From Clostridia bacterium (GTDB lineage: Bacteria; Bacillota; Clostridia; Oscillospirales; QAKW01): a stretch of DNA of 64,000 nt. The notes beneath the pieces were generated by a model. It was not told where the DNA came from, ran no database searches, and saw nothing but the letters and a program-made list of their open reading frames with translations. Shown in pieces: positions 835 through 36,967 of this stretch (position 1 is its first letter; each line of letters starts with the position of its first letter). The translations under genes and the position numbers were made by a program. The stretch is taken from contig JAFSCX010000044.1 of the NCBI GenBank assembly GCA_017436525.1, positions 1,267 to 65,266 of the forward strand, written 5' to 3'.

Positions 835-1179
835 ATGACCAACACCATCTATCAATTACTACATCATTTAAGTGCAACCGGTAACTACCGAGGCTTTAAG
901 CTCACGGTGATTGCACTGAGGCTTGTTTTGCAAGATGAAGATTGGCTTCTTCAGATTACCGAGTTATGCCGAGAGGTTGCAAGAATCGCAGGCTGCCCCG
1001 AATGTACCGTAGAGCGAAACATCCGGACGCTGATCAATCGGGTGTGGAAAAATTGCTCGAAACGATTGATTGAGATCGCCGGCTTTCATATGTATGCGCC
1101 GCCCAATGTATCCGAATTCTTGGATATCCTTGCAAATCATATCCGCCGCACCTGCCGCGTTTCGATTTCAAAAGAATAG
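835..1179 (+). CDS. Spo0A C-terminal (DNA-binding) domain-only protein, prophage-encoded
   Basis: 114 aa. YRGFKLTVIALRLVL..LLQITELCREVA....CTVERNIRTLINRVW....IEIAGF.....PPNVSEFLDILANHIR aligns motif by motif with the Spo0A effector domain (KGY.YLREAI..LLGSITK.LY..IA....VERAIRHAIEVAW....FGY...KPTNSEFIA). There is no receiver domain. RBS AGGAGG lies upstream. Confidence 0.75.
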   Translation: MTNTIYQLLHHLSATGNYRGFKLTVIALRLVLQDEDWLLQITELCREVARIAGCPECTVERNIRTLINRVWKNCSKRLIEIAGFHMYAPPNVSEFLDILANHIRRTCRVSISKE

Positions 1180-1182
1180 AAG

Positions 1183-1217
1183 AAAGGCTCTCCTTTGCGG
1201 GAGAGCCTTTCTTTTTT
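1183..1217. terminator. bidirectional intrinsic terminator
   Basis: AAAGGCTCTCC-tttgc-GGGAGAGCCTTT hairpin followed by CTTTTTT. It sits between the convergent 835-1179 (+) and 1216-10626 (-) genes. Confidence 0.8.
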
Positions 1218-4200
1218 AATCCTCTTCGTGAGCCTTCTTATAAGCTTTGATCTTCGCGACCGTCTCCCAGCCCGTAGAAACCGAGAACGGATTATTCTTT
1301 GCAGAGGTCGAGCCGGTAAAGAGTTGCCAGAGAATTGCCTGCTGGCGCCGAGTCAGGCCATCGGTGGAAGCAATGGCCGCTTGAATCCTGCCATTAGATG
1401 CACTATTCTTACCTGCCGCATCATTGGCATCCTCAAGATTCTCTTTGACCATGATAAATTGATCAAGAGAAATATCATGCTCCGTTCCGATTGCAATCCT
1501 GCGCCGATCGGAATCAGATGCAAATAGGCTCATTGCATAAAGTTTTTCGCTCTCATCAACATCGGCGCTTGCAATCGCCTTATACTTTTGCAGATAAGAG
1601 ATACTTTCCTCGCCCTGCTCCGGTGCTATCGCCTCAAGACCTCTCGCGATCTTAACAGCACTTTCTTTTGGAAGCCCCTCACCAATCATTTTGGCCGCCT
1701 TATCGGTATCCACCGAAGAATCGAAATAAATATCATAGAAGGTATCAAAATCAATATTATTCTCTTTTACCACCTTTTGAGCCCGCTCATAGGTGCTCTT
1801 CCCTTCGATCTGCAGAGCCATTTCGGCACCATAGATCTCTCGATTCACCTCCCGATAAATCTCTTCGGCAGATGCTGAAGGATCATTGGCCAGACGCTCA
1901 TCCACTGCTTTGATATACCGTTCATACTCTTCTTCTGATTGAAGCAAAAGAGCATTTCTTGCAGCATATTGGATTTTCAATGCTTCTTCCTTATCCTTTT
2001 TACTAAGAGAGACATTGCCCTGAATCTGCTTGATTTCCTTGCTGATCTCGGAGATCGCCTTAGCTTTATGATTCCACCACCGATATTTCACCTCATCGGC
2101 AGCGGTTGCCTTGCTACTGTTCTTCTTTTCCGTCAGCAGATCCTTTGTATCATAAAAATCACCCTGCAGACGATTAGAATACTCCGAATCAATAACAAAT
2201 GCTTTAGTCAGGAAATTCTGCTGGCTTGCCACCGAAAGCATGGGTAAAATAATATCTCCGGCAACACCGGTATAAGAATCCAGCAGATAATTGATCTTCT
2301 TGGGAGAGATATTCAATGCTCCGCCGATCGCAATAGAGAACTTATCGGTAGTGGCATCATACTGCTCCGCCTTGGGATCATCTTGCATGCTCTGGGGCAC
2401 AATATCTCCGCCATACCAATTTTTATTGAAAGCAATGGCGGTCAGCGCAGATGCAAAGACATTATCCGTCAGCGGATTCATCGGTGCAACCTGATCGGCG
2501 GCCGTGGAGATAAATTCACCCCAGCCAATCTCTTCTCCCTCGATCAACTGCTTAATCCGATATATCGGCATCCCCATTACGGAAAGAACTCTTCCTTTCG
2601 GAATCTTCAGCCAAGAATGATCTCCCGCTTTTATCAGGAAATTTACATCCTTATCCCGCTGCTTGATCTTCTCATATTCATCATCATCTCCGAAAAGAAT
2701 ATCATTGATCAGCGAAGGAGCGATTCCCAAAAGGGCAACCTTTGCAATCAGCCCCACCCATTGGCGGGCGCTTTTTGTCTCTGTCAGCAGGCGGCAAGCT
2801 TTGGACCATCCCTGAATGCTTGGGTTAAAGAAGGGTACCCAATTCTGATTTAAGCGCTTCCCAAGCGTTCCGCTCCGGCCGAAATTAACCGTAATATCCG
2901 CAGCGTTATACATAGCTTCCATCAAGCTATCCATGCTGCCATCGCCTTTTTTAACTGTGGCCATAAATTCCGCCAATCTCGGTGCCTGCTCTATGGCGCG
3001 ATTCAACCATTCAATTCTGTTACCGATATTCCGCTTGATCCATCCGCCTTCCTCTTTGATGATCCCTTGATTATAATCGAATACAGAAGAATAAGTGCCT
3101 CCAAGCGCCTGATACTTCTGCCAATACTCTCCGTTTCGTGCAATCTCCTTCCATGCTGCAGGGTAGTTTCGCAAGAATCCTTTTAGATCCTTCGAATAAA
3201 GAGAAGCATCCTGAATATCTCTTGCAAAGTTTCTCACCGCAAAGGCAGGGTTGTAGCTGGTGATCAACGCTTTATAGAGATTAACCGCTTTATGAGACTG
3301 CTCTTCCAGCCAAAATGTTTTTTCTTTTTCCGGCGAGAGTGCCTTGACCGCCTCCAAGAGCTCCGGCGTTACCGAAAGGGTGTATTGAGTGCCATGGTCA
3401 TATACCATAAAAAGATTTTCCCACTCCTCTTGTTGGAAGGGATCCATCTTGTCGATTGCACCCTCAAACTCCGAAAGCCCGATCATACGATCGGCAGATT
3501 GCTCAAAGTCAACCACCTCTTTGAACTTTCCTTGGCGCGCAAGATCCAAGAGCCTCATTCCAAACCGATTCTTGCTTCCCTCACGCACCACCGATAAAGT
3601 CTGATCGGCGATCTGCTTATGGAGCGGCACCAAATCGGCCACACCGTCCTCCGCTCTGCCTACCGTCTTTCCGATGGATGCCCGATTGCTCTTTCTCGCC
3701 TCAACGCTCTCTTCCGCTTGCACCCTGCGGGTCGGCACATAATGAGGATAAATCGCCCTCAGCTCCTCGGCAAAATCCTTGGAAATCAATCCGCTATCCA
3801 CTCGATATTGCAAAAGATTATCAAGATATCGCCGCACTGCATCTCCAAGCTCCTTAAATTCCGGATGCTCTCGAAGGAGATCCTGCGCCTTACCTTCGCT
3901 GACCTCGGCAGTAACATCAGGGCCGAATACAGGAATATTTCGAATTTCCTCCATCCGCTCCTTAAAATCCAATGCCTTGATATATTCCAACGCTGCAGGC
4001 TGAGATGGATCGCTCCAATCTCCCGCTTTTCTGCGAATATCCCGTTCCGATAGATTGGCAAATTCCGGATAACATTCCGCAATCAGCTCAAAATCTGCCC
4101 GAGCCTGCTCGGTTCTTTCAATGCTCTCGCGGCTCATGCGGTCGATATTATGAAGATGGTAAAGGTAATATTGGAATTGCTCATAATAAGCCTTACCCTT

Positions 4201-7200
4201 CTTCATGATCGGCGAGAAAATCTCATTGAGCCCTTTTCCAATGGTATCGCCAAATATATTGGTCTGCTTGTTTTGAATCATGCTGATTCCCGCATTGGAG
4301 GAAGAACGTGCCATATTGAAATATTGATAGAGATGCTCATCCCCTTTTCTTCGGCCAATATCATAAACCGCATCGCCGGAATCTACCAGCTTCCGCTGGA
4401 TCATATTCCAGCTCTCGCTCATCTTCTCTCCAAAGGTCTTGCGTTCCTCCTGCACCTCAGTAGAAACGCCCGCCTCCGGTGAAGCATTTTCCTCCGCAAA
4501 GCTCGAAGCGGTTCGGGAAAGAAGCGCCATATAACTGCTTGCGTTTTGGCTTGCTCTCTTTGCCTCGCCGCTCTCCATCTCAAAGAGCGCATCGATCTCC
4601 GCCTGCCGATCGGCCGCAAACTGCGCTTGTTCAAAGGGATCCATATCGACAAAGTCTTTGGCGAAATCTGCACCATCATTCTGCGCCGCCACCTCCTCCG
4701 AGGTAAAGAGGGAATCAATGGCATCTGTTTCTGGATCAAAATCCGTTCCGGGGCGGATCTGATCTCCGCCATTTTTCCAGCCATATTCCCTCGCCCGCTG
4801 CTCCTTTACCTTGTTTTCCAACTGAGCGATGATATCCCCGCTCACCTTGCTCTCGCCAAGATGCTGCTCAATGGCTCCCAATACCTTCCGCAGCATCTCC
4901 GCCGATTCGATATCGGTATCCGCCAAGCGATCCACTCCAGCATATGCATTTTCTAAAAAAGCGTCGGCATCCACGCCTCCAAGTCCTTGGGCTTCTTGCA
5001 AAATTCCCTCTTGGCGGTAAAGCTCTGCCAGCTCCACTACCACATCATTGCGGCCGGGGGCAATTAAGGAAGAGACTTTTCGCTGTTTTGGAGTGGAATT
5101 ATTTTTTTCTTGACTATTTTGATTGTTTTGTGATATATTATTATTGGAAGTATTCATTCCATAGCTAGCGGCAATTGGCGCCGTCGGCTCACTGGTTTGG
5201 ATGCTTCTGTTTTTTATTCTAACAATATTTCCTTTTCTCAATTCTTTTTGGATATACCCGCGCAGATCTTCTTTACCAAATACAGTAGCCACCTTATTCA
5301 CATCTATCATCACTCTGTTGCAGTTTGCGTGTTCATTAATATAAACAGGGACATTGATAGTATCTCCGTTTTGATTTTTATGTTGAGAGATAAGGAGAAA
5401 ATATTTTTCTCTTCTGTTTGGATTATCAGCGTTTTTGGTTCCTCGATACGCCTCCGTAACATCCTCTAAGCTATCCATAACCTTCAAAAACAGAGTATCT
5501 CCAAGGCCGTGATAATTAGTTTTACCGTCAACCTTTAACCCCATTGCTTGCGCTTCTTTTTCAGTAAGGATGTTTTCTCTGATATGCGACGCCTTCATGG
5601 CCATCGGAAGATTTTTAGCACCTTTTTGAGAAACTACAATTGACGGTGTAGTTTCTGTTAGCTCAATATCGCCTCCATAATATTTATTGTTTATCGCCTT
5701 TTTAACCTCGGTCGCCGCTCCGTCTTTTAATGAATATTTCATCGCCCCCTCAAGATCCACCGCACCTTCCGCCGCCTGATAATTGGAAGCCGCATCGAGG
5801 GCGGCATCTTCAAAAAGCGCATAGAATTGATCCAATACGCCTTCCATCTGCTGCAGGGCTTGCGCCTCGGCAGATGCGGGGGCGTAATTATTTTTGGAAT
5901 ATTCTGCACGGATTCTTTTCAAAAGGCTTTTGATATGATTGATGATCCGGCTGAAAAGGCTCTGATCCTTCTGCTTCAGTGCGGCAAGCTTCTCCACCGC
6001 CTTGCTATCCAGCAGCATCCGCTCGCAGGCATCACAAACGACCTCCTCATAAGCCAAAGCGGGATCCTCGATCCCTAAAGCCTCTTGCTTTGCCTTAACC
6101 AGCTCATCCATGGAGATCCCATGCTCCCCATATTGCTCCTCTAAGAATTTTGCAAAGGCATCGAATTTTTCTACCGACCACTGCTTAATAAAGTGGGTCA
6201 GTTCATGGCTCATGGTTAAAGCGATGGTCTTTCGATCATCCAAATTCTTCTGCAGATCTAAATGGATGCTGCTATCGGCCTCATTAAAGAAACCATTTGC
6301 ATTAGCGCCATAAGTACCTTCAATAGTGGAATCATAGAAAACAATATCAATCCCGATGGCATTGGCAACCACTTTTGCAAGCTTCACCGCTTGCTTTTGG
6401 GATTCGGTGATGGCTTCTGCCCCCTTTTCAAAACGCACCGCGCCGGTACCAGCCACCGCCTCGGGTGCTTCCGCTTGCTCATCATAGATCATCTCCCGAG
6501 CGATTCTTTGCTCCTGCTCAGTTACTCGATTTTCATTGCAAAAAGCCTCGATCTGCTTCCGCACCGCCGCAAGCTCTGTCCGATCAACCGTATAGGCTTC
6601 CTGCGTTAGCATAACGGAATAATACCGAGCGCAAAACTCATCCTCTGCCATTGAGCGTGAATAATCCAAGCCGCTCACAGCCTTTTGCTGCAGAATGGTA
6701 TTGATCTCCTCTGCAACACCCTCTTCTCCGAGGGTGTTTTTTGCTGCCTGCAGGATGGTTTCTCGAAAGTTCTTTCCCTTTTCCGGCTCCAGCTGCATGA
6801 TCATCTGATAGGCCTGATGGCCGATGGCATAAAAAATCCCCTGATCCAGATCGGTAAGATTCACCGCCATTAAGCCGGAAGCAAGAAAATCTCCCGTTTG
6901 ATGATGATCGGTAACAAGGAAATGAATCCCGCTCATCTCCGAGAGAATATTCAAGGTCTCTGCCGCCTCTTGCTGGGTTTCATTCAAATCAGCTCTGCCT
7001 TCCACGATCACGCCTTCTTTCATGAAGCCTGCCATGGAATCATAATATAAGATCTGCTCAATGGCTTGGGTATCGAATTCCCCGAAAGTATCCTTAAAGA
7101 GGGCAAGGCGGGCTTTAGAAACCTTTCCATTCTCATCGGTAAAGGAAGCAAGGCGGGCAAGGAGTGCGATCTGCCGAGGGGAGATATCCTTTCCCAAGAG

Positions 7201-10200
7201 TTCCTCTCCCATCATCCCCTCAAGGATCGAAAGCAGCCGCTCATCCTTGGCAATGGTCGAAGCTTCTTCTAAGGTGAGGGTTTTTGCAGTCAGCACCTTG
7301 CGGAAGATCTCCTTCGCCCGCTTGATCTCGGCAGGATCTGCACCTTCCATATTGGCCTCGATCATGGTGGAAAGAGTTTTGGCCGCGCCCTTCACTCTGC
7401 GCTTGCGGATGCTCTTTTGGATATTTACAATATCCTTTGCCGAAACGAACGCTGCAGCCCCCTCTTTCCCTTTATATCGGGGTTGCTGATTCTGCTTCGC
7501 TTCTTTGATCTTAAGGGCTGTTTTATTCTCAAGCTGCGCTCCGAGGGAGATCAGCTGATCCACCTCGCCAAGCTGCAGGGTGCGGGCCGCTTCGATTTCT
7601 ATGGCACGATTTTCAAAAGGAGCATAAGCCACCGAGAAGGCACCGCCGGTAATGGCGCCCAAAAGGAAGCTTCTGCCGGCCTCTTCCCAATCGATTTCTT
7701 CCAGCTCAGCATCAGAGATCCCATTAAGATCGGAAGCGATCTTAGAAAGGAAAGGGCTGATCACCTCCTGCAGGAATTCCTCAAAGCCTTCAGCGCCCAT
7801 GGAGGAGGCGATCTTGATAGCGGTTTTTGCGCCTTTGGTAAGTGCAAGCTTCTCAATGCTGCCCTTCAGCTTTGTAAAGAGCCCATTTTTCGAAGTGAGC
7901 CCCGGAATACCACCCAAGATCTTCTCCATTGCCACCTCTGCGGTACCCGATAGCACACCGTGGGTCAGCGCTTCATCAGACCGCTTGCCTGCGGCAATAT
8001 CCTCGGTATAGGTGGTGGCCATGGATTTGGCAAAGATATAACCGGAGGCTGCCGCCTGCCCCACGACCGGCACAAAGGAAACCGCTACCGCAGGCACCAT
8101 ATCTAAAATAGTATAGCCACCCATGTAGATCGTCTCCAATGCCTCGCCGCCGAATCCCATCTGATCCAGTTTTTCTACCGTTACCTGATGAGAAGCGGTC
8201 CCCAAGGTTCCCGCCATCCGCTCATAACTGCCTGCGGCCATATTTTCAAGCATATAGCCGCCTTGTGTTAAGAAACGGGTCAAGCCGGAAAATGCACCTT
8301 TTGTTCCTGCCCACCAATCATTGAGGGAATCAGCCTCAGCTAAAAGGGCCTGCTCCCGCACATTGGCATAATAGGAGAAAGCAAGCTCATGCTCCCCTTC
8401 TGCCAAAAGGGCAAGGACCCGATCCGCCTGCTCTTTTTCAAAGAAGCCGTAATCTCCTTTTGCAAATCCTTCCACATCGGTTTCAAAATCCCGATAATTG
8501 CCATCAAAATATTTTCCTCCATGGCGATATTGCTTCGCAATTTCCGAAAATCCCTCCAAGGAAAATTCCTTCGCTTTTTCTGCCGCCTGATCATCCGGAA
8601 TCAGTTCTTCTGCATATTGCACCACATTCCGATGATAAGCGCCGGTAATCTTCTGCTCTTTTTGGGAAAGCTCTCCGATCTCACCCTGCACCCTTGCAAG
8701 AGTTTCCTCGTTGCCCTCAAGCACACCGGGGAGCCGCTCACCGTCCCGCGTAATATAAACCGCCTTTCCGTCTGCATCATATTCCAGCCGCAAGGTCATC
8801 TGATCCCGTGCATATTGAGCATTCCCGCTCATGATGGTGCTATATTGCATCAGATCTTCCCAACGCCGGCGCACATCGGAATGAAGCTTGCTCACCTTCT
8901 CGGCCCAATTCTTGCCGGCATAAGATTTAGCCCATTGCTCCACTTCTTGATCCTCGGCAGCATTCTTCTCATTGGTCTTTCGGTTCTCAATATATTTTGC
9001 AAGTTTATCAGTTTCTTTTTTATACTCCGAATATTTCTTTTCTTGACCATCCACAATAACATCCGCCAACGAATTCTCTGCATAGTTCGTTTTCTTCAGC
9101 CATTGCACATATCCGGGAAGCCGTGCATTGATCATTTTTTCCTGTTCAGCCTGCAGTGCCTCTAACTCCTCAACAGAATACCCTCCATAGATATCATCCA
9201 TCTTCCGGTATTCTTTTTGGCTCTCATAGGATTCTTCATTCTCCTCATAAGTAACAGCATATTCCTGCATCTGTTTCAAAGCAGGAAGGCTCTTTTTAAG
9301 ATATTCCGCAGCGCCGGAGACAATCTCCTGCTGATCTACGGTGAGATCTACATTCTTCAAAGCATTCTCCAAAGCGGCAACCATACCCTCCGAGGTCTTG
9401 ATATGAATCTCAAGTTCCTTTTTCTCCTCATCGGAGAGTTTCTCCAGCTGATCAAATTTTTCTTTTGCCTTGGTATAGATCTGCTCTGTGGCGGCGGTGG
9501 TGCTGCCGATCCCTTTCTCCAAGCGGTCCAGATAATAAGAATAGGCAGCGTTACGATCCTCAACCGTCTCCGCTTCTTGAAGCATCACATAAGCATCCGC
9601 GATGCGGAAGGTTTCCTTTTCCTTTGCACTCTCAAGGGAACCGGCAGTATCAATGATCTTTTCCAGCCTCTTCACCGTCTCCTTCGCCCATTCAGGCGCC
9701 TTTTCCTGCACTTGAACCGATAAGGCTTCCTTCTTGGTTTTTACATTTTTTACCGAAGGAGCAGCAAGCTTCTCAAGGGCGGTATATCCTTCAGCAGTCA
9801 TTCCCGAAAGCCGTTTCTTGAGCACCCGCTCTTCCATGGCATAATCAAAATACCGCAAGGCCGCCTCCATCTGGCTCCTGCTTCTGCTATCAATTCCGCT
9901 TCGGAATGCAATCCATTCCCGCGCCTCTTGAAGATCCTTAAAGGATTGCCCCGTTTTTTCGGCATACTCAATCGCTTCCCGAACTCCCGATTTAATCTTT
10001 TCGGGTGTTTCATCATCAACAGAAACCTTTTCTTTTTTCTGCTCCACCTTCTTTTGAATCGATACCGTCTCTCCGGCCTTAATAGCCGCAATCGCCTGCT
10101 CATAATCCGCCTTCGCCTTAGCAGCCTTGGCTTTGGCGGCCTGTTTTTGCTGAAATTCCGCGTTTTTCTTCTCGGCAAACGTTCTTACCACGCTATCCTT

Positions 10201-10626
10201 AAAGCCGAGATCTGCCGAAAAAGAGGGATCGTAGATCCCAAGCGCCAGCATATCCATTGCCTCTTGCCGGCGATCGGCAAGCTCTTGCGCTTCCACCGAG
10301 CGAATAGAGCGGCGCTCCTGCTCAACCAAGGAACGATCGGCGCGGCGTTTTTGCTCTGAGCGGTTTCGCTCTGATCGTTCAAAGGAAAGGCGGCTTTGCT
10401 CCATGGAGATTTCCTGCCCCGCCTGCGCCATAGCGATCTGCGCCGCCCTATTTTGGGCTGCAATCTCCTCATCACGGCGGATTTTGGCCGTTTCTGTTTT
10501 GGTTTTAAGGATATTTCGCCCCGAAATGGCGGAAAGAGCCGTCCGAGAGGACTCGGAGGCTCTTTCAAATTCATTCATCATCTGATCCCTTGCTAAAAGG
10601 ACTTGCTTCAAAGTATTATCGCTCAT
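1216..10626 (-). CDS. giant (3136 aa) multidomain virion/ejection ('polyvalent') protein with Zn-metallopeptidase motif
   Basis: Single uninterrupted ORF and last gene of the structural operon. It has an N-terminal K/E/R-rich coiled-coil region, a Gly/Ala-rich hydrophobic segment (..YMGGYTILDMVPAVAVSFVPVVGQAAASGY..), an HELTH motif at nt 6193-6207 (aa 1474-1478) inside ..NGFFNEADSSIHLDL....ALTMSHELTHFIKQW, and a large C-terminal region (..VNFGRSGTLGKRLNQNWVPFFNPSIQGW..). Confidence 0.7.
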   Translation of the reverse strand: MSDNTLKQVLLARDQMMNEFERASESSRTALSAISGRNILKTKTETAKIRRDEEIAAQNRAAQIAMAQAGQEISMEQSRLSFERSERNRSEQKRRADRSLVEQERRSIRSVEAQELADRRQEAMDMLALGIYDPSFSADLGFKDSVVRTFAEKKNAEFQQKQAAKAKAAKAKADYEQAIAAIKAGETVSIQKKVEQKKEKVSVDDETPEKIKSGVREAIEYAEKTGQSFKDLQEAREWIAFRSGIDSRSRSQMEAALRYFDYAMEERVLKKRLSGMTAEGYTALEKLAAPSVKNVKTKKEALSVQVQEKAPEWAKETVKRLEKIIDTAGSLESAKEKETFRIADAYVMLQEAETVEDRNAAYSYYLDRLEKGIGSTTAATEQIYTKAKEKFDQLEKLSDEEKKELEIHIKTSEGMVAALENALKNVDLTVDQQEIVSGAAEYLKKSLPALKQMQEYAVTYEENEESYESQKEYRKMDDIYGGYSVEELEALQAEQEKMINARLPGYVQWLKKTNYAENSLADVIVDGQEKKYSEYKKETDKLAKYIENRKTNEKNAAEDQEVEQWAKSYAGKNWAEKVSKLHSDVRRRWEDLMQYSTIMSGNAQYARDQMTLRLEYDADGKAVYITRDGERLPGVLEGNEETLARVQGEIGELSQKEQKITGAYHRNVVQYAEELIPDDQAAEKAKEFSLEGFSEIAKQYRHGGKYFDGNYRDFETDVEGFAKGDYGFFEKEQADRVLALLAEGEHELAFSYYANVREQALLAEADSLNDWWAGTKGAFSGLTRFLTQGGYMLENMAAGSYERMAGTLGTASHQVTVEKLDQMGFGGEALETIYMGGYTILDMVPAVAVSFVPVVGQAAASGYIFAKSMATTYTEDIAAGKRSDEALTHGVLSGTAEVAMEKILGGIPGLTSKNGLFTKLKGSIEKLALTKGAKTAIKIASSMGAEGFEEFLQEVISPFLSKIASDLNGISDAELEEIDWEEAGRSFLLGAITGGAFSVAYAPFENRAIEIEAARTLQLGEVDQLISLGAQLENKTALKIKEAKQNQQPRYKGKEGAAAFVSAKDIVNIQKSIRKRRVKGAAKTLSTMIEANMEGADPAEIKRAKEIFRKVLTAKTLTLEEASTIAKDERLLSILEGMMGEELLGKDISPRQIALLARLASFTDENGKVSKARLALFKDTFGEFDTQAIEQILYYDSMAGFMKEGVIVEGRADLNETQQEAAETLNILSEMSGIHFLVTDHHQTGDFLASGLMAVNLTDLDQGIFYAIGHQAYQMIMQLEPEKGKNFRETILQAAKNTLGEEGVAEEINTILQQKAVSGLDYSRSMAEDEFCARYYSVMLTQEAYTVDRTELAAVRKQIEAFCNENRVTEQEQRIAREMIYDEQAEAPEAVAGTGAVRFEKGAEAITESQKQAVKLAKVVANAIGIDIVFYDSTIEGTYGANANGFFNEADSSIHLDLQKNLDDRKTIALTMSHELTHFIKQWSVEKFDAFAKFLEEQYGEHGISMDELVKAKQEALGIEDPALAYEEVVCDACERMLLDSKAVEKLAALKQKDQSLFSRIINHIKSLLKRIRAEYSKNNYAPASAEAQALQQMEGVLDQFYALFEDAALDAASNYQAAEGAVDLEGAMKYSLKDGAATEVKKAINNKYYGGDIELTETTPSIVVSQKGAKNLPMAMKASHIRENILTEKEAQAMGLKVDGKTNYHGLGDTLFLKVMDSLEDVTEAYRGTKNADNPNRREKYFLLISQHKNQNGDTINVPVYINEHANCNRVMIDVNKVATVFGKEDLRGYIQKELRKGNIVRIKNRSIQTSEPTAPIAASYGMNTSNNNISQNNQNSQEKNNSTPKQRKVSSLIAPGRNDVVVELAELYRQEGILQEAQGLGGVDADAFLENAYAGVDRLADTDIESAEMLRKVLGAIEQHLGESKVSGDIIAQLENKVKEQRAREYGWKNGGDQIRPGTDFDPETDAIDSLFTSEEVAAQNDGADFAKDFVDMDPFEQAQFAADRQAEIDALFEMESGEAKRASQNASSYMALLSRTASSFAEENASPEAGVSTEVQEERKTFGEKMSESWNMIQRKLVDSGDAVYDIGRRKGDEHLYQYFNMARSSSNAGISMIQNKQTNIFGDTIGKGLNEIFSPIMKKGKAYYEQFQYYLYHLHNIDRMSRESIERTEQARADFELIAECYPEFANLSERDIRRKAGDWSDPSQPAALEYIKALDFKERMEEIRNIPVFGPDVTAEVSEGKAQDLLREHPEFKELGDAVRRYLDNLLQYRVDSGLISKDFAEELRAIYPHYVPTRRVQAEESVEARKSNRASIGKTVGRAEDGVADLVPLHKQIADQTLSVVREGSKNRFGMRLLDLARQGKFKEVVDFEQSADRMIGLSEFEGAIDKMDPFQQEEWENLFMVYDHGTQYTLSVTPELLEAVKALSPEKEKTFWLEEQSHKAVNLYKALITSYNPAFAVRNFARDIQDASLYSKDLKGFLRNYPAAWKEIARNGEYWQKYQALGGTYSSVFDYNQGIIKEEGGWIKRNIGNRIEWLNRAIEQAPRLAEFMATVKKGDGSMDSLMEAMYNAADITVNFGRSGTLGKRLNQNWVPFFNPSIQGWSKACRLLTETKSARQWVGLIAKVALLGIAPSLINDILFGDDDEYEKIKQRDKDVNFLIKAGDHSWLKIPKGRVLSVMGMPIYRIKQLIEGEEIGWGEFISTAADQVAPMNPLTDNVFASALTAIAFNKNWYGGDIVPQSMQDDPKAEQYDATTDKFSIAIGGALNISPKKINYLLDSYTGVAGDIILPMLSVASQQNFLTKAFVIDSEYSNRLQGDFYDTKDLLTEKKNSSKATAADEVKYRWWNHKAKAISEISKEIKQIQGNVSLSKKDKEEALKIQYAARNALLLQSEEEYERYIKAVDERLANDPSASAEEIYREVNREIYGAEMALQIEGKSTYERAQKVVKENNIDFDTFYDIYFDSSVDTDKAAKMIGEGLPKESAVKIARGLEAIAPEQGEESISYLQKYKAIASADVDESEKLYAMSLFASDSDRRRIAIGTEHDISLDQFIMVKENLEDANDAAGKNSASNGRIQAAIASTDGLTRRQQAILWQLFTGSTSAKNNPFSVSTGWETVAKIKAYKKAHEED

Positions 10627-11249
10627 GATTTATTCTCCTTATATTTTCTGTAGTATTCCTTCAGGACCGAGATCGGCCGCCCGATCTGTTTGGCGATTTC
10701 CGCATTGATTACGCCGGCCCGCACCATCTCCCACGCCTCATTTTTAAGCTGAGCCGCTTGATTTGCATGATAGGTCCGATCGGAATTTGCTTGATCCGCC
10801 TTAAACTGCCGATCTGCATTTTCCTTCTGCCAAGCAAAATCCCGCTGATCCGTCTCAAAGGAAAGCTTGCCCTGCTCCATTTCAATAATATTGGCCGATT
10901 TTTGAAGCTCACCCTCCGCTCGGGCCTGCTCTTTTTGAATCCCAAGCTGAGAGATCTGCCGATCCCGCTCCAGCAGAGCATTGGTACGATTGGTATTATA
11001 ATTTGCCGCAAGAGCTACCGCCGCGCTCTCAGAGGCACCGCCGGTGATCCCCGCAGCCTTTTGCGCTTGGGCCTGCAGCCTCTTTTGCCGCTCATTTTGC
11101 AAATATAGACTCTGCAATTGATCCGCCGCCGAATCTCTCACATCGCTGATCTGCGCATCATAAGCGTTGCCTTGCGCCGCCACGCTTTGATCAATGGCCG
11201 CATTTTTCTTTTTGTATGCCTCAATGAGGCTCTTATTGCTTACTGCCAT
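10623..11249 (-). CDS. Q/A/K-rich virion internal protein (hypothetical)
   Basis: Start chosen at MAVSNKSL (ATG 11249) behind AGGAGG, rather than the upstream ORF-track start. It overlaps the giant ORF by 4 bp. Coiled-coil-like composition. Its position corresponds to internal virion proteins of podoviruses. Confidence 0.5.
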   Translation of the reverse strand: MAVSNKSLIEAYKKKNAAIDQSVAAQGNAYDAQISDVRDSAADQLQSLYLQNERQKRLQAQAQKAAGITGGASESAAVALAANYNTNRTNALLERDRQISQLGIQKEQARAEGELQKSANIIEMEQGKLSFETDQRDFAWQKENADRQFKADQANSDRTYHANQAAQLKNEAWEMVRAGVINAEIAKQIGRPISVLKEYYRKYKENKS

Positions 11250-15757: not shown

Positions 15758-16492
15758 TCAAAGCATCTCAAGGCGCTGCAAAACCAGCGCAAGCTGTGCC
15801 CGTGTTACCGGCTCATTGGGATTAAAGTTGCCCTTATCATCCCCTACCATCAGGCCCGCTTTGGTTACCTTCTCCACAGCCTCTCTCGCCCACTTGGGGA
15901 TCTCTTTTGCATCGTTATAGGCCACCGCTCTCACCTCCTCCTTATAAGGGATTCCAAGGCTTTTCAAAAAGCCTTTTGCAATCGCTTTTCCGAAAGCCTT
16001 CTGCTCTGCAGCGGTATCGATTGCCGCAAAATCCTTTTTATTATCGATAAATGCGCTCTCGATGATCACGGCAGGAGCTTTGGTATTCCGGATAAAAGCA
16101 AAATAATCTTTGCCGTCGGAGCGAGCCTTCGTCTTGCACCCTCGGCTGTTCTGCCCCGCTTCCTCCAAAGCTTCAAGGATATCGGTGCCAAGGGTTCTGC
16201 CCCTGCCGCCGGATACCGAATGAAACACCTCTGCACCATCCCCGCCGCCGGCATTGATATGGAGATCTGCCGCAAGATCAGGTCCAAAGGAATTACATTC
16301 ATTCACCTTGGCGGCAATGGTCATATCCTTATCCTTCTCCCGCGAGATCTTCACCGTTACGCCATGCCGACGCAGCTCCTCGGCGCAAGCCTTCCCGATA
16401 GAAAGGGCAATCTCTTTTTCCTTAAAACCACCGGACACCGCCCCCGAATCTGCGCCGCCGTGGCCGATTCCCAAATAAACCTTCGCCATCAT
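15758..16492 (-). CDS. endolysin: N-acetylmuramoyl-L-alanine amidase (Amidase_3) with C-terminal SLH domain
   Basis: GIGHGGADSGAV....EKEIAL....ADLHINAGGGDGAEVFH are amidase_3 motifs. The C-terminal YNDAKEIPKWAREAVEKVTKAGLMVGDDKGNFNPNEPVTRAQLALVLQRL is an SLH repeat. Confidence 0.9.
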   Translation of the reverse strand: MMAKVYLGIGHGGADSGAVSGGFKEKEIALSIGKACAEELRRHGVTVKISREKDKDMTIAAKVNECNSFGPDLAADLHINAGGGDGAEVFHSVSGGRGRTLGTDILEALEEAGQNSRGCKTKARSDGKDYFAFIRNTKAPAVIIESAFIDNKKDFAAIDTAAEQKAFGKAIAKGFLKSLGIPYKEEVRAVAYNDAKEIPKWAREAVEKVTKAGLMVGDDKGNFNPNEPVTRAQLALVLQRLEML

Positions 16493-16728
16493 TTTGCTCC
16501 TTTCAGCTTATGCATGTATCCATCCGCTTCGATCGCCTCTTTGGTGAAGGAATTATTCTTCCACCAGCTCCAAAGGCTTGTCCCTACCGTTACGAGAATT
16601 GAAATCCCTTCATAAAGCTCTTCATCGCTGAAGGGCAAAGGATTCGCCCCCAACACCGTAAGAAGCTGATTGATCAATGCGATGATCAATGCAAATGTTC
16701 TGATAATTGTCATTTTTGAAATATTCAT
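16489..16728 (-). CDS. holin (phiLC3/SPP1-type)
   Basis: 79 aa with two hydrophobic helices and the WWKNNSFTKEA signature of this holin family. It overlaps the endolysin gene by 4 bp. Confidence 0.85.
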   Translation of the reverse strand: MNISKMTIIRTFALIIALINQLLTVLGANPLPFSDEELYEGISILVTVGTSLWSWWKNNSFTKEAIEADGYMHKLKGAK

Positions 16729-17217: not shown

Positions 17218-17823
17218 TTATTCCTCCTTGTAGTTATAATTGATGGTTGCATTGGTAGCACCCCAAGGAGCATTTGCTACCTCACCCTCCGCCCAGGGGA
17301 CGTTTATAACGGTTAGGTTATCGCATTTTTGAAAAGCGTTGCTTGCAATGCTCATCGGTGTACTCCTAAATGTTATATTTGTTAATCCTTTGCAACCGCT
17401 AAAAGCAAGAGAATATATTTTTGTAGTATTTAATTTTGTAAGTGCGATTTTCTCGCAACCATAAAAAGTCGCCGCGCAAATAGCACCTTGAAATTTCAGC
17501 AATTCCGTTAAAACAAGATTTTTGCAATTATAAAAGGCATACTCGCCAATCCATGTAATCTCGTTAATGCCCTCAACGCTTTCGAGATTTTCGTGGTTCA
17601 TAAATGCATATTGTTGTATACTTGTTATTCCCTCGGGCAAGGTAAAATGTGTTGCAGTTTTCCGCCAATACTCTTCCCATTGACTATCTCCACCGCCTGT
17701 TTGAATATTAGAGATTGCAGCAGGGAGATCGCCCACTAATATCAGGTCGCTTGTTCCGCTCTTCTCCCGAACTGCATCAGCAATGTCGGTCAAGGTTTTT
17801 TCTTGGATGATGTATGCACTCAT
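17218..17823 (-). CDS. BspA-type leucine-rich-repeat protein (virion appendage candidate)
   Basis: Repeats of the form I..I..YAF..C.NL (ITSIQQYAFMNHENLESV, ITWIGEYAFYNCKNLVLT, FYGCEKIALT, IYSLAFSGCKGLTNI, IASNAFQKCDNLTVI). AT-rich gene that overlaps the fibre-like gene by 4 bp. Confidence 0.7.
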   Translation of the reverse strand: MSAYIIQEKTLTDIADAVREKSGTSDLILVGDLPAAISNIQTGGGDSQWEEYWRKTATHFTLPEGITSIQQYAFMNHENLESVEGINEITWIGEYAFYNCKNLVLTELLKFQGAICAATFYGCEKIALTKLNTTKIYSLAFSGCKGLTNITFRSTPMSIASNAFQKCDNLTVINVPWAEGEVANAPWGATNATINYNYKEE

Positions 17824-19226
17824 ACACTCACCTCCTCAGCAAGAGTGAACGAACCGATAATATCCTCTTTAATCGTTACACGCTCATTTTCTAATATTTC
17901 TGCCAAGCGAGTAGGGCTTATAGCGGTTTTATCCTCCTGCTCTTTCGTCATGACCAGGGTTGCTTTTCGGGGGCAGCCCCCTTCAAATAGGTTTCCCGCC
18001 TTCCACATGGTTGCCGCAAGTTCTTGGTCGGCTAAATCATCAGGAAACGTGAAGGGGCTTGTCGCGGAATCTTTAACATACATCTGGGTTTCTTGCGAAA
18101 GATCCGGGAGACCCATATAGATATACCTGATTTCCGTTTCAGATACGATCTTTACATCATCGGAGGGGAGAGCGTAAGTGATTGCTTTTTCAGTAATATC
18201 CTCCTCATAAATTTGCGTAGGCGGGAAAAGAGAATCGATCACTTTTTCTTTGGTGGTCAGTTCTCCATCCTTCGATGAAACACTTCCGGCATATACTGCA
18301 TTGCCTTCCCAATCCAATGTATAAGCATTGGATCGTTCATCATCAGAATCGCCAGTGCCATTGCCCACAATATCAGCATATTTTTCATCAAAATCCTTCT
18401 CATTGAATTTTCCGGCCACTCGCTGTGCGTTAGATCCGGCATAAGTCCCTTCGCCTGTTTCAACCGAATTTTCACCGCTCCCTTTTCGAATTGGAAGCCC
18501 ATCCAACGCCTCCTTAACCCCTTTTCCGCTGATAGGATCCTCACTTTCGGCATTATAGGAGTCCCGCACAACATCCTTTCCAAGATAAGTGTTTTCAGCA
18601 TCTACCTTTTTAAGATAATCTGCCTCCGCGCTTTCTTTTCTCAGAAAGGCTTCGGAAGCCAATTGCTCAACCACAGATTCCCTTGGAAATGCAGTCAACC
18701 CAAACGGGTAGCTTAAATCCATCAATGCACTTTGAAATAAATACGAATAGCTGGTATAGAATAAATCCCCTGTATCTTTTGCTCTCAAAAATACTTTTGT
18801 ATTCTTTTGCTCTTCCGTTATATCATTAATGTTTTCAATCCCCATCGCTTGGGCTATAGCTATCGGTCCTACGATTCTCATCGATTCGCCGTTTGGAATG
18901 CTGACAAAAATATCGTTTTTTCTAAGATAATCCTTTTCTGCCGCTGTTTTTTCAAGATAAGTTTCTTTCGCATCACTTTTACTGAGATAAGCATTTTTAA
19001 TTCCATTGAGTACATTGGTAATCGCCCGCAGCCATGGTAAAAACACATGAAGGTTGATATAATCATAAAACTTTTTTACCCGCGCGCTTGTCTCTCCCTC
19101 AACGTAATCCTCCTGCTCTTGATGAAGGTAATCATTGATTTCACTTTTATCCACCGTAGCAATCGTTCCATCATCATTTTCAAAAGATTTGATATTATCG
19201 TCCAAGTTCTTCGCCTTAAGCGCCAT
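17820..19226 (-). CDS. tail fibre/appendage-like protein
   Basis: 468 aa. ..ADIVGNGTGDSDDERSNAYTLDWEGNAVYAGSV.. resembles the GNG..(x)RSNA.tldw.GN motif that recurs in phage fibre proteins. Located after the portal gene. Confidence 0.5.
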   Translation of the reverse strand: MALKAKNLDDNIKSFENDDGTIATVDKSEINDYLHQEQEDYVEGETSARVKKFYDYINLHVFLPWLRAITNVLNGIKNAYLSKSDAKETYLEKTAAEKDYLRKNDIFVSIPNGESMRIVGPIAIAQAMGIENINDITEEQKNTKVFLRAKDTGDLFYTSYSYLFQSALMDLSYPFGLTAFPRESVVEQLASEAFLRKESAEADYLKKVDAENTYLGKDVVRDSYNAESEDPISGKGVKEALDGLPIRKGSGENSVETGEGTYAGSNAQRVAGKFNEKDFDEKYADIVGNGTGDSDDERSNAYTLDWEGNAVYAGSVSSKDGELTTKEKVIDSLFPPTQIYEEDITEKAITYALPSDDVKIVSETEIRYIYMGLPDLSQETQMYVKDSATSPFTFPDDLADQELAATMWKAGNLFEGGCPRKATLVMTKEQEDKTAISPTRLAEILENERVTIKEDIIGSFTLAEEVSV

Positions 19227-23579: not shown

Positions 23580-24344
23580 TTACACATCTACAAGGCACTT
23601 CCAACGGGCCTCTCGGTCCGCCTTCTTTTTCTTTGGATCTATTATATATTTGAAGTAAAAGTACCCGTATTTGGTCTTTTTACTCTCAACCAATATGTAC
23701 CCCTTCGGAGCTCTCGGAGGCTTTTTCTCGTTGTATTCTCGCAATGCTACGGTTGCTTCCTCCCGCTCAGGACGCTTTGCGTTGCGCGTCATCTTCCATC
23801 GATGGCCACCCTGTTCCTCCGTCCAATGGTTAAAAAGGTAATTGGCAAGACCTGTATAATCCTGACCGTGGTCTACGCCTTTATATGTATTGTGTGCCCG
23901 AAGATTCACAATCCGCTTGATCTCTCCGCATTTCCACTTCTGCCCGATATATTCCGCAGGTATTCCCAAAGATACCATGTGGAAATGGATCCGCTCCGTG
24001 CTCTTACCACGTCCCATATAAAGAAAGATCACTGCATCAGGATATTTATACCGAAGCCGCCGCATATAATTGGCGGCGATCCGATCTGCATCTCTAAAAT
24101 CATGAACCTCGTGAAAATCATCAAAGGTTAGTGTGCTGTAGAGAGCTTTGGGTGAAAAATTTTCATTAAAAAGTCGGGTATGATTGCGTCGTGAGATCTC
24201 AACCCGATGTATTGCACGCTCTTCTTCATTTTCAAATCGGATCGTCGGCTCCGCTTTTCCAATATTTTTTGCTTTCGCCGAAATATGATAGACCTCCTGC
24301 TCACAAACACAGCCGGAAAATGTCCTTCTTTTTACCCTAAGCAT
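23580..24344 (-). CDS. HUH-superfamily rolling-circle replication initiator (Rep)-like protein
   Basis: Three ordered motifs: YSTLTFD (motif I, FxTLT-like), RIHFHMVSL (HUH) and GLANYLFNH (catalytic Tyr candidate). Confidence 0.55.
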   Translation of the reverse strand: MLRVKRRTFSGCVCEQEVYHISAKAKNIGKAEPTIRFENEEERAIHRVEISRRNHTRLFNENFSPKALYSTLTFDDFHEVHDFRDADRIAANYMRRLRYKYPDAVIFLYMGRGKSTERIHFHMVSLGIPAEYIGQKWKCGEIKRIVNLRAHNTYKGVDHGQDYTGLANYLFNHWTEEQGGHRWKMTRNAKRPEREEATVALREYNEKKPPRAPKGYILVESKKTKYGYFYFKYIIDPKKKKADREARWKCLVDV

Positions 24345-26239: not shown

Positions 26240-26675
26240 CGTATCCTTCCTTTCTGTCAAAAACTGTACCAATTACTTTGGCACGCTCCGCAAAGAAATT
26301 ATCAAGATCATCAGTTGCACCATTTTCCGTCCAAGCAACCTCAAAGCGACAAAGCGCATCATTCCAACGAACAATGAAATCTTCTCCTTCACCATCATCT
26401 CCGTAAAACCGGCAAATATCTCCTTCAAAGATAATTCCGCGCTTTGCCTTCATTCCGGTGCAGCTTCCTATTGTCTCCGGTATAACATTCCAGATTCGGC
26501 TCTTTTTGCCAAAATTTCGAATATAATAAACGGTTACCTCTCCTTTAGAGGCTACAATTCTTAAGTTACCTTTTACCCACCAACCTTTGATGAGTTGACC
26601 ATTTATGTAAATATTTTCTGATCCGCTTGAATCTTCATGAAATCCACGAAAAACAAATCTACTCTTTGAATTCAT
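26226..26675 (-). CDS. YopX-family phage protein
   Basis: ..VIPETIGSCTGMKAKRGIIFEGDICRF....VIGTVFD matches the YopX pattern (v.peTvgq.TGl.Dk.G..IyEGDI ... viGNi.d). Confidence 0.7.
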   Translation of the reverse strand: MNSKSRFVFRGFHEDSSGSENIYINGQLIKGWWVKGNLRIVASKGEVTVYYIRNFGKKSRIWNVIPETIGSCTGMKAKRGIIFEGDICRFYGDDGEGEDFIVRWNDALCRFEVAWTENGATDDLDNFFAERAKVIGTVFDRKEGYDGIL

Positions 26676-27696
26676 TCATTTCCTCCTTGATTCTTTTATC
26701 CATCGCAACGGATAGATTGTAACAATTTCCATGGGATATGTGATTCTTCCAAGCATTATAGGAAGCATTAAATTTATCTTTAGATAACCTTCCGCTCGCA
26801 ACCAACTTGGCCATTTTCAGATATTTGCGCTGGGCATTTCGCTTATTTTGATTTTTCAGCTTGCGGATCGCTCTGCCATTGGACGTTATATAGGTATGGA
26901 ATCCAAGATAATTAACCCCGTTTTTGAATGGAAATATTTGTGTTTTTTCGTTAAGCGTCAGATCCAGTGTTTTCAAAAACTCTGCGATCACCTCAAGGCA
27001 ATATTTCAGATATTCTTTGCTCGGATGTATTAAGTAGAAATCATCCATATACCTGCCGTAAAACTCTATTCCCAGTTCTCCCGTTATCAGCTTGTCCATG
27101 CCGTCTAAATACAACAGTGCCAAGCCTTGGTTGATCTGATTACCAAGCGGAAGGCCTTTGCCCTCGGTGCTATCAATAAAAAGATTGATCAACCAACAAA
27201 TATCTGGATCATACGAAAAATAAAAATCAACCATATCCTTTAATTGCTCATGGGAGATGTTATAAAAGAATTTTGAGATATCGCATTTAAGGATATAACC
27301 ACTTTTTTCATACCTACCGTAAAAAGCTCTCATCTGATCAGATAATCGATCAAGACCGAAGAGCGTTCCTTTCCCTTTTTGTCCGGCACAATTATCATAC
27401 AGAAACACCTCCTGCAGTTTCGGCAAGAGTACGTTATCGCAAAGGCTATGTTGTACAACCTTATCTTTGAAAGATGTTGTTTTAATGATCCGTTCTTTTG
27501 GCTCATACACCTTAAATTCATGATAATCAGATATCCGGTAGGTTTTATCTTTCAATTGCTGTATCAATGAATTAATTCCATCTAAGGCCATCACATTAAA
27601 CCTTGCGGCACTCTTTTTATAACCCTTGCCGCTTTTGGCTTTACGGTAAGCCTTATACAGATTGTTAAAGTCAATTACTTTCTCAAACTCGGTCAT
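26659..27696 (-). CDS. diversity-generating retroelement (DGR) reverse transcriptase
   Basis: 345 aa with RT motifs, including GLPLGNQINQGLALLYL (DGR-type I/LGxxxSQ-like motif 4) and YGRYMDDFYL (YMDD). It lies immediately 3' of an Avd gene and a TR that matches two VRs. Confidence 0.9.
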   Translation of the reverse strand: MTEFEKVIDFNNLYKAYRKAKSGKGYKKSAARFNVMALDGINSLIQQLKDKTYRISDYHEFKVYEPKERIIKTTSFKDKVVQHSLCDNVLLPKLQEVFLYDNCAGQKGKGTLFGLDRLSDQMRAFYGRYEKSGYILKCDISKFFYNISHEQLKDMVDFYFSYDPDICWLINLFIDSTEGKGLPLGNQINQGLALLYLDGMDKLITGELGIEFYGRYMDDFYLIHPSKEYLKYCLEVIAEFLKTLDLTLNEKTQIFPFKNGVNYLGFHTYITSNGRAIRKLKNQNKRNAQRKYLKMAKLVASGRLSKDKFNASYNAWKNHISHGNCYNLSVAMDKRIKEEMNEFKE

Positions 27697-27806
27697 ACAA
27701 CACGCCTTCTTTTTTGTTTATCCATACGGAAAGGCTGTATGTTCTTTTGATGAAGTGGTGTTCTGATTTCGGCTTTTGCCTACTCTGTCTGACGATCCAC
27801 CAATAC

Positions 27807-27871
27807 GGGCGCACGCCGTTATTGTTGTTGTAGTTGTTGTTATTGTTGATGTTGCCGCGGGGCGAGACACA
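27807..27871 (-). repeat. DGR template repeat (TR)
   Basis: Coding-strand sequence: TGTGTCTCGCCCCGCGGC AAC ATC AAC AAT AAC AAC AAC TAC AAC AAC AAT AAC GGCGTGCGCCCG. There are 22 adenines in the central 36 nt. The invariant flanks are identical to VR1 and VR2. Confidence 0.9.
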
Positions 27872-28268
27872 AAAAATACAACACACAGCCTATATTTAAT
27901 CTTTTTTTCTCTTTGCTCCTCCAAGCAATAGCCATATACTTAACATCAGAAGTAATCTTGGACCAATAAGATGCCGAATGATCCGCAAGCAACCCTAAAT
28001 TCATTGATAATTCAATAAAGAATAGCAGCTCATCGCAATAGGTTATAGCTCTCGTGATAGTTTCACAGCGTTGTCGCTTATCGGTAACATTATTGATCCG
28101 GTTCGCCTCAAAAAGCGTCTCGTAGATCTCCAAGCTCTTAATCTGAATCTTATCTACAAGAGAATGGCGATATTTCTTTGGATATCTATTGCAATTAGAT
28201 GTCAATTTGAAAGAATGTACCGCCAATTCCTTAGCCTTGACGATTACCTTCAATTCAGTATCTGCCAC
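27840..28268 (-). CDS. avd: DGR accessory variability determinant (Avd), four-helix-bundle family
   Basis: 142 aa with a GTG start. ..NRYPKKYRHSLVDKIQIKSLEIYETLFEANRI... resembles Avd and 23S-rRNA-IVS four-helix-bundle proteins. It lies between the targets and the TR, and its 3' end overlaps the TR. Confidence 0.8.
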   Translation of the reverse strand: MADTELKVIVKAKELAVHSFKLTSNCNRYPKKYRHSLVDKIQIKSLEIYETLFEANRINNVTDKRQRCETITRAITYCDELLFFIELSMNLGLLADHSASYWSKITSDVKYMAIAWRSKEKKRLNIGCVLYFLCLAPRQHQQ

Positions 28269-28273
28269 GATCC

Positions 28274-28813: not shown

Positions 28814-28814
28814 A

Positions 28815-32759: not shown

Positions 32760-32774
32760 AAGGAGGTGAAAACT

Positions 32775-36914: not shown

Positions 36915-36967
36915 GATTTGCGCCTTCCTTCTCTTTCTCATTAAGGGCTATTCTATCATATTGCAAC

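Follow-up and report, generated by a model that had tools for sequence, protein, structure and literature searches.

A 3136-residue large polyvalent protein in a temperate short-tailed prophage of a gut Clostridia bacterium

Described polyvalent proteins and the giant protein of the prophage

Polyvalent proteins were defined by Iyer, Burroughs, Anand, de Souza and Aravind in 2017 (PMC5512222), who found the domain LPD38 only in the phage type. In the same work the zincin metallopeptidase (MPTase) was described as the main hub of these proteins and proposed as a polyprotein processor; a hydrophobic or membrane segment is not mentioned there. Here we compare with these and other described systems a giant gene found in 64,000 nucleotides (nt) of contig JAFSCX010000044.1 of a Clostridia bacterium (assembly GCA_017436525.1), a stretch that we call the window. 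The gene is a single open reading frame (ORF; 1216-10626, minus strand) that starts with ATG, encodes 3136 amino acids (aa) and is the last gene of the late, structural operon of a prophage. Its product, called the giant protein below, is a large polyvalent protein of a temperate short-tailed prophage of a spore-forming, Oscillospiraceae-like gut Clostridia bacterium.

An earlier note, made from the letters of the window, had proposed this class for the protein, and the follow-up analysis bears the proposal out. Multiple unrelated domains stand in one chain, the phage-only LPD38 is among them, and the gene lies in a neighbourhood of structural genes. In the Pfam domain scan that had been recommended, which we ran on the whole protein and on segments of it, LPD38 (PF18857) was found above its cut-off (core at aa 2648-2798, positions 2233-2685 of the minus strand; E 2.1e-31, 109.9 against 27 bits), with MuF_C and MPTase-PolyVal remaining below threshold. 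The giant protein is thus like the proteins of Iyer et al. in having many domains per chain, a zincin MPTase hub, a predicted RNase of the MuF-C/PBECR type, the phage-only LPD38 and virion genes as neighbours. It is unlike them in that PF18818 does not capture its HExxH clade.

The best described relatives are known from virions. The protein gp47 of the Stx phage phi24B (2811 aa; LPD5, LPD1, LPD38 and MuF-C) was detected by mass spectrometry as an abundant virion protein and is unseen in cryo-electron microscopy (cryo-EM); its authors proposed it to be an encapsidated ejection protein and called its packing, ejection and use open (preprint 10.64898/2026.04.10.717836). Similarly, gp69 of the Burkholderia phage JC1 (4515 aa, 22 % of the genome) was found to be virion-associated by mass spectrometry with 51 unique peptides (PMC9144972). 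Virion association, as claimed for the giant protein in the earlier note, therefore holds at the level of these two relatives of the C-terminal module. For a third polyvalent protein, gp25 of PTXU04, knock-down sharply cuts plating (PMC11879866); it is related to the giant protein at the level of the fold, by a match in BFVD.

In comparison with phi24B gp47 and its homologs of the 933W/VT2-Sakai type, the giant protein shares a giant single ORF, a temperate short-tailed phage and an LPD38 supermodule near the C-terminus, and with gp47 also the MuF-C and metallopeptidase annotations. However, the identity to gp47 is ~22 % and confined to the C-terminal module, gp47 has LPD5 and LPD1, neither of which was found in the giant protein, and its host is Gram-negative. 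The 'DarB-like antirestriction proteins' of Bcep22-like and GP4-like phages (JC1 gp69, 4515 aa; GP4, 3224 aa) likewise share the C-terminal LPD38 module; among the virion genes, theirs is the last large one and takes up 20-30 % of the genome. The GP4 protein differs in being without the hydrophobic block, the zincin clade and MuF_C. The label 'DarB' on these relatives reflects size and context, and no DarB-type methylase or helicase is present in the giant protein. Prophages phi1 and phi4 of Clostridium clostridioforme LM41 are also from gut Clostridia and carry a 3'-terminal ORF of 8 kb (~20 % of the genome) with likeness to polyvalent domains; the likeness described is to LPD3 and not to LPD38, and we set them beside the giant protein by description only.

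The kind of protein is already established and common. By tblastn, the C-terminal module was found in 370 phage records, including JC1 gp69 (E 1e-14) and an Stx-phage protein of the VT2-Sakai type (E 1e-14), and it linked the giant protein to Stx, Ralstonia GP4-like, Burkholderia Bcep22-like, Vibrio, Bacillus megaterium, Shewanella and Pelagibacter phages. An alignment-based genome scan placed the LPD38 module in at least 203 species-representative genomes, the best 80 loci being nearly all from gut Clostridia and other Bacillota; the same scan with a single sequence instead of the alignment gave no match. Among the homologs the C-terminal module is kept and the N-terminal effectors vary (ART, MuF_C, LPD3, PBECR, helicases, methylases).

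The gene, its operon and the modules of the protein

The 9.4-kb frame is uninterrupted in the ORF list and in translation, and it covers ~28 % of a prophage of ~1.2-34.3 kb, both in agreement with the earlier note. That note had also named mis-assembly or a frameshift as an outcome that would speak against its reading. Such an artefact was not seen and can be excluded, because the identical 3136-aa protein occurs on 11 metagenome contigs from different samples, because relatives of like layout exist, and because the coding signature GC1>GC2 is found in all modules of the gene. The full-length relatives (P0002-P0006; 2788-3286 aa) have as a common layout an N-terminal region of ~1350 aa, the LPD38 module, which P0006 has exchanged as described below, and a C-terminal tail; intact relatives of this size show 35-55 % identity along the whole length (blastp). 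The protein is at the same time a mosaic of modules, since its blocks are individually common to different proteins when mapped by blastp against 35 relatives.

The expression signals read from the sequence surround this frame closely. A Shine-Dalgarno sequence, AAGGAG, lies at 10635-10640 (minus strand), 8 nt before the ATG, and a terminator-like hairpin of 14 pairs followed by a T-run (1180-1213, minus strand) stands directly 3' of the stop codon, facing a convergent Spo0A_C gene. Upstream, the gene calls place a Gln/Ala-rich ORF of 208 aa (10623-11249, minus strand), whose position is kept in relatives. Its stop overlaps the start of the giant gene by 4 nt (ATGA), so the two are apparently translationally coupled, and its product is a possible partner protein of the giant protein. 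The 208-aa ORF has a weak, sub-threshold match to T7_gp14 (E 0.0034, 17.7 against 27 bits) and, with a maximum KD19 of 0.87, no hydrophobic segment by hydropathy.

The giant gene ends the structural operon, as had been stated. All genes of the operon are on the minus strand and follow the order large terminase (TerL), P22-like portal, 468-aa ORF, BspA-type leucine-rich repeat (LRR) protein, holin, Amidase_3+SLH endolysin, 263-aa ORF at the position of a scaffold gene (no family match), major capsid protein, SU10-type adaptor, 721-aa ORF, 208-aa ORF and giant gene. No tail tube, tape-measure, sheath or chaperone gene was found among the operon ORFs scanned, and the absence of tube, tape-measure and sheath genes makes this a podovirus-type module, in line with the P22-like portal and the SU10-type adaptor. 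The giant gene is also last in the equivalent gene order of relatives P0005 and P0006, and in relatives it is invariably downstream of the adaptor and nozzle-position genes. In order to place the tail architecture we compared the 721-aa ORF, a 219-aa ORF and the portal with the PDB, with no matches, and tblastn of the neighbour proteins against the GP4 region gave no matches either.

At the other side, a large serine recombinase (Resolvase, Recombinase and Zn ribbon by domain matches; 32766-34226, plus strand) probably marks the integrase end of the prophage. As host-like genes for TspO (34899-35378) and AzlC (36225-36941) lie beyond it, the prophage is taken to span the ~1.2-34.3 kb given above. 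The host is read as a spore-forming gut Firmicute because the relatives come from gut Clostridia (named sources are Oscillospiraceae, Oscillibacter, Faecousia, Vescimonas, Ruminococcus, Christensenellaceae and other gut Clostridia) and because the flanks carry the spore-coat genes CotJA/CotJB.

The N-terminal region of the giant protein (aa 1-760; 8347-10626, minus strand) was delimited by composition, heptad contrast and a blastp map. It is rich in charged residues (34-37 % KRED) and poor in Pro+Gly (5.3 %), and the heptad contrast of several segments within aa 188-731 lies above the 99th percentile of shuffles. The region is probably helical. Of the charged coiled coils that had been described, the charge is confirmed and the coiled coil is suggested by composition and heptad contrast, with no dedicated predictor having been used. 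The region is common to the closest relatives only, and no tblastn match to the N-terminal 1365 aa was found in 50,697 deposited phage records.

The Gly/Ala-rich hydrophobic block that had also been reported is present (aa 820-1020; 7567-8169, minus strand, by hydropathy and profile search), both by composition, with a G+A fraction of 0.24-0.27 across aa 700-1000, and by Kyte-Doolittle hydropathy, which exceeds 1.5 at aa 837-865. The block has conserved motifs (NM.PS.AVSF.P..GQ, SE..EE.LQ...P and LLGA..GG), and no Pfam model for it exists. When 1.84 billion representatives were searched exhaustively with HMMER, it appeared in 555 protein clusters at E<=0.001, mostly proteins of 2000-4100 aa in which the block starts at a median residue of 419. 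Its carriers variously have RelA_SpoT+LPD38, ART-PolyVal, LPD3 or MuF_C.

Two zincin-like domains follow in tandem. The first (aa 1210-1352; 6571-6999, minus strand) is degenerate, with HQAYQ in place of HExxH, and is presumably inactive, judging from that replacement. By profile it was matched at 56.9 bits (E 1.4e-19; 300 shuffles gave at most 6.8 bits), and in the AlphaFold model it forms a confident island of strands followed by helices. The second (aa 1399-1560; 5947-6432, minus strand), identified by alignment, profile and AlphaFold, contains the intact site HELTH (aa 1474-1478, nt 6193-6207) in the context that the earlier note had quoted, with a conserved A-x-E-E helix downstream. H95, E96, H99 and E149 in the numbering of the alignment are invariant in the 10 aligned zincin-domain sequences, which makes this a conserved zincin-like block. 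The AlphaFold model (pLDDT, the predicted local distance difference test, of 70-88) shows a helix, strands, the HExxH helix and a later Glu helix, a topology that fits the zincin core described in PMC5512222. More than 100 HExxH-bearing copies of the clade were found among the giant proteins gathered, usually ~300-500 aa after the hydrophobic block. With Foldseek, the HELTH domain had no match at E<=0.001 among solved structures; sub-threshold zincins were collagenase H/G, lethal factor and BlaR1 (probability 0.06-0.44), and ArdC was reached by profile at E 0.58.

An AT-rich insert, also noticed earlier, is real (aa 1641-1850; 5077-5706, minus strand): its GC is 0.368 and its GC3, at third codon positions, 0.33, compared to 0.483 and 0.51 for the whole giant gene. 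It coincides with a nuclease-type module, as aa 1669-1808 (5203-5622, minus strand) form a domain of the MuF_C family, a PBECR-type predicted RNase. The match to Pfam MuF_C (PF18819) is below threshold (E 6.8e-4, 20.2 against 27.6 bits). With a profile that had P0125, a Pfam-positive MuF_C (69 bits), as its seed and with the close copy P0015 left out, however, the domain scored 72 bits (E 5e-22; shuffles at most 7.6 bits), and the histidine of YH.LG is conserved in the profile alignment. By blastp the domain has 53-57 % identity, to P0015 only. Because GC3 is 0.33 against 0.51 in the gene, the domain would be a recent import, judged by composition, and may act as a predicted RNase cargo. In deposited phages the zincin and MuF_C region was matched by one unannotated faecal contig only. 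The insert is followed by a linker rich in Asn/Gln/Ser and acidic residues (aa 1851-2049; 4480-5076, minus strand), delimited by composition, with near-zero homolog depth and low complexity.

The LPD38 supermodule (aa ~2050-2990; 1657-4479, minus strand) is a conserved and mostly helical unit of ~950 aa, so that the conserved unit around LPD38 is ~5x the size of the Pfam domain. An alignment of 32 sequences has 19 invariant columns, and VNFGRSGTLGKRL at aa 2580 and PFFNPSIQGW at aa 2598, two motifs that the earlier note had picked out, are near-invariant columns of the C-terminal module; the region of ~1400 aa in which it had placed them reduces to a conserved part of ~1090 aa (aa ~2050-3136). 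The AlphaFold model of the supermodule (pLDDT 73.5, predicted template modelling score 0.63, mostly helical) has 72 BFVD matches with TM 0.5-0.66 across ~1000 columns, including E. coli phage PTXU04 and Ralstonia phage Alix. No match to the PDB was found by sequence/profile search or by Foldseek. The models thus suggest that the C-terminal unit is one conserved fold of ~1000 residues that occurs in many phage proteins and is without a solved relative. The segment folding that had been recommended was therefore successful in part: the LPD38 unit and the zincin domains were modelled with confidence, and the hydrophobic block (pLDDT 26-58) and the MuF_C domain were not, the model of aa 760-1860 having a pLDDT of 55 that is too low to interpret either of them.

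The C-terminal helical tail (aa 2991-3136; 1219-1656, minus strand) is an independent module. It is common to P0006, which is without LPD38, and P0033 and P0067 match here in the tail only. P0006 (2941 aa; L005 10001-18826) matches the giant protein in the N-terminal 1344 aa, the tail and the synteny. The ~1450 aa in its middle are unrelated; they contain no Pfam domain, and hhalign did not detect LPD38 in them either.

Proposed function and alternative explanations

We consider it likely that the giant protein is a polyvalent protein made late, packaged and ejected, with scaffold parts, a zincin pair and a MuF_C cargo whose activities are predicted ones. The position of the gene as last cistron of the structural operon, its coupling and its terminator are observed and point to late synthesis. 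From its homologs, a few copies would be packaged in the capsid and expelled via portal and tail at infection. The scaffold would consist of the N-terminal ~1350 aa, hydrophobic block included, and of the ~950-aa LPD38 supermodule, and would most likely serve packaging and ejection and possibly membrane insertion. The zincin pair would most likely serve polyprotein processing, or else cleave a host or cell-wall target, and MuF_C would be a recently swapped-in effector cargo nuclease. A putative role of the hydrophobic block in an ejection channel agrees with published proposals for relatives.

Known ejection systems offer a comparison at the level of layout. As with N4 gp50/DEV gp71, the virion RNA polymerase (vRNAP), and with T7 gp14-gp15-gp16, the giant gene stands beside small partner genes after the tail genes, and the giant proteins of N4, DEV and T7 are part of the virion and yet not seen by cryo-EM. 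In DEV gp71 the layout is analogous, with a predicted transmembrane region N-terminal to its enzymatic core and a C-terminal domain that binds the tunnel protein. On the other hand, the giant protein is without RNA polymerase motifs, lytic transglycosylase or PDB similarity to T7 or DEV, and its host is probably monoderm, so that an outer-membrane pore or periplasmic tunnel is unneeded. The analogy to T7 gp14-16 and DEV gp71-73 would thus be one of layout only.

Several candidate identities were tried and rejected. Likeness to T7 gp15/gp16, DEV gp72 or P22 ejection proteins gave no match by phmmer, by two profile searches or by two Foldseek-PDB searches, and the comparison with the T7 gp15/gp16 core in the earlier note has no support in sequence or fold. 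The same note had seen no RNA polymerase motifs, correctly, and an N4-like vRNAP was rejected as no RNA polymerase family was matched in Pfam or NCBIfam; a PHROG 'RNAP beta' match (E 0.0085) covers 60 residues of the charged N-terminus, of which no stretch is significant alone. P1 DarB was rejected with no methyltransferase or helicase match in Pfam for the whole protein or for segments. As for a tape-measure protein, no such model was matched in Pfam, PHROGs or NCBIfam.

Some results weigh against packaging and ejection by the modules described here. Virion presence and ejection of the 3136-aa protein itself would follow from its homologs only. In sequence and fold comparisons it resembled no entry of the PDB, whether a solved ejection or core protein or another one. 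A single segment of the hydrophobic block exceeds the transmembrane-like hydropathy threshold, and the block is poorly modelled. The HELTH domain is below the cut-off of Pfam MPTase-PolyVal (PF18818; 16.8 against 27.5 bits), and although 4 of 10 relatives of the domain match this family (best E 0.0013), membership by transitivity was rejected with 0 of 9 distant members of the clade matching. The GP4 protein, being without the hydrophobic block and the zincin clade, indicates that these modules are not a universal machine. Finally, LPD38 cannot be the sole indispensable anchor in the lineage, because P0006 does without it while its N-terminus, tail and synteny are the same.

Rather than a part of the delivery apparatus, the protein could be purely an anti-defence carrier like DarB, injected to blunt host restriction or immunity, with no structural or channel role and dispensable in hosts free of such defences. 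The annotation of relatives as 'DarB-like antirestriction' would suit this explanation, as would the interpretation of polyvalent proteins as early-phase conflict effectors by Iyer et al. (PMC5512222) and the free swapping of effector modules seen in the AT-rich MuF_C insert and the variable N-termini. However, no methyltransferase or helicase of the P1 DarB kind was detected, the large non-enzymatic parts are conserved over hundreds of clusters, and the gene follows the adaptor and nozzle-position genes, the place at which podoviruses encode their ejection proteins. The effect of the PTXU04 knock-down on plating, moreover, was seen on the ordinary host of that phage (PMC11879866). We regard an exclusively anti-defence role as unlikely.

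An external tail or wall-penetrating protein (a needle, fibre or tape-measure analogue) with a zincin that cuts Gram-positive peptidoglycan cross-links seems very improbable to us. The authors of the phi24B work did suggest that the metallopeptidase may degrade peptidoglycan (preprint 10.64898/2026.04.10.717836), the giant gene is downstream of the tail adaptor and the 721-aa ORF, and the Gly/Ala-rich hydrophobic block recalls tape-measure segments. No family of tape-measure, tail-fibre or peptidoglycan-hydrolase proteins was matched in Pfam, PHROGs or NCBIfam, though, and phi24B gp47 is absent from the external tail density; moreover, the operon already has candidate receptor-binding or tail genes (the 468-aa and BspA-LRR ORFs) and a separate SLH amidase. 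Nearly refuted is the explanation that no functional single protein exists, the ORF being decaying, fused and pseudogene-like or normally split by frameshift or processing. Such an ORF would account for the heterogeneous composition of the modules and for one degenerate zincin copy, but it is contradicted by the unbroken frame on 11 contigs, the intact relatives of 2788-3286 aa at 35-55 % identity, GC1>GC2 in all modules and the strong ribosome-binding site and terminator.

Beyond the packaged and ejected polyvalent protein that we favour, a more specific reading can be put forward, which we hold as a rather doubtful one. The N-terminal ~1350 aa (charged arm, hydrophobic block, and dead and live zincins) might be an undescribed, conserved 'delivery core', an ejectosome in a single polypeptide with which podoviruses of gut Clostridia would cross the Gram-positive wall and membrane, with LPD38, MuF_C and other domains as exchangeable cargo. 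P0006, in which the N-terminus, the tail and the synteny are retained and the LPD38 module is replaced, points in the same direction.

Other features of the prophage and significance

The window has further features that concern the prophage rather than the giant gene. The holin and the Amidase_3+SLH endolysin (15758-16728, minus strand) are located in the middle of the operon, between the portal/LRR and the scaffold/capsid genes, and not at its end; the holin is called Holin_SPP1 in locus L002, and relatives have a Peptidase_M23+SLH endolysin in the equivalent place. The slot from portal to holin (17218-19226, minus strand) is hypervariable. Here the slot is filled by the 468-aa and BspA-LRR ORFs, in L005 by a pair of ORFs of ~368 aa and in L006 by a Peptidase_M14 protein of 1041 aa; its genes are probably receptor-binding or tail appendage genes. 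An ORF of 254 aa (23580-24344, minus strand) has a sub-threshold match to REP_ORF2-G2P (E 2.6e-4, 21.7 against 27.8 bits) and may be the replication initiator of the prophage.

Convergent with the giant gene is an ORF of 114 aa (835-1179, plus strand) that consists solely of a Spo0A C-terminal DNA-binding domain (E 1.8e-18). It is linked to the giant gene in L002, L003, L004 and the distant L006, despite differing outer flanks (Spo0A_C-linked regions at L002 19448-21519 and L006 18396-18737), and may be a prophage-borne mimic of a sporulation regulator and not a host gene. CotJA/CotJB and two small ORFs are likewise linked to the giant gene in L002-L004.

A diversity-generating retroelement occupies 26659-29435 (minus strand). 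It comprises a reverse transcriptase ORF (26659-27696, minus strand; RVT_1, E 7.5e-17), a template repeat of 71 nt (27801-27871, minus strand) and a variable repeat that is 85 % identical to it (28861-28931, minus strand), located at the 3' end of a 206-aa ORF without Pfam match (28815-29435). All mismatches between the two repeats (11 of 11) are at a T of the plus strand, that is, an A of the coding strand. The giant ORF is not the target of the retroelement.

In many short-tailed phages, between a fifth and a quarter of the genome is given over to giant polyvalent proteins. The giant protein leaves the current picture of the polyvalent class unchanged. Its new points are modest ones: the LPD38 fold of ~1000 residues, for which no solved relative was found, the hydrophobic block, which is widespread but has no Pfam model, the tandem pair of a dead and a live zincin, the compositionally foreign MuF_C insert, and the relative P0006 with LPD38 swapped out. 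The latter is a natural module swap that can be used to probe the role of LPD38, and the hydrophobic block and the zincin pair are concrete targets for mutagenesis. For a Gram-positive lineage from gut Clostridia, the giant protein also provides a clean map of the modules.

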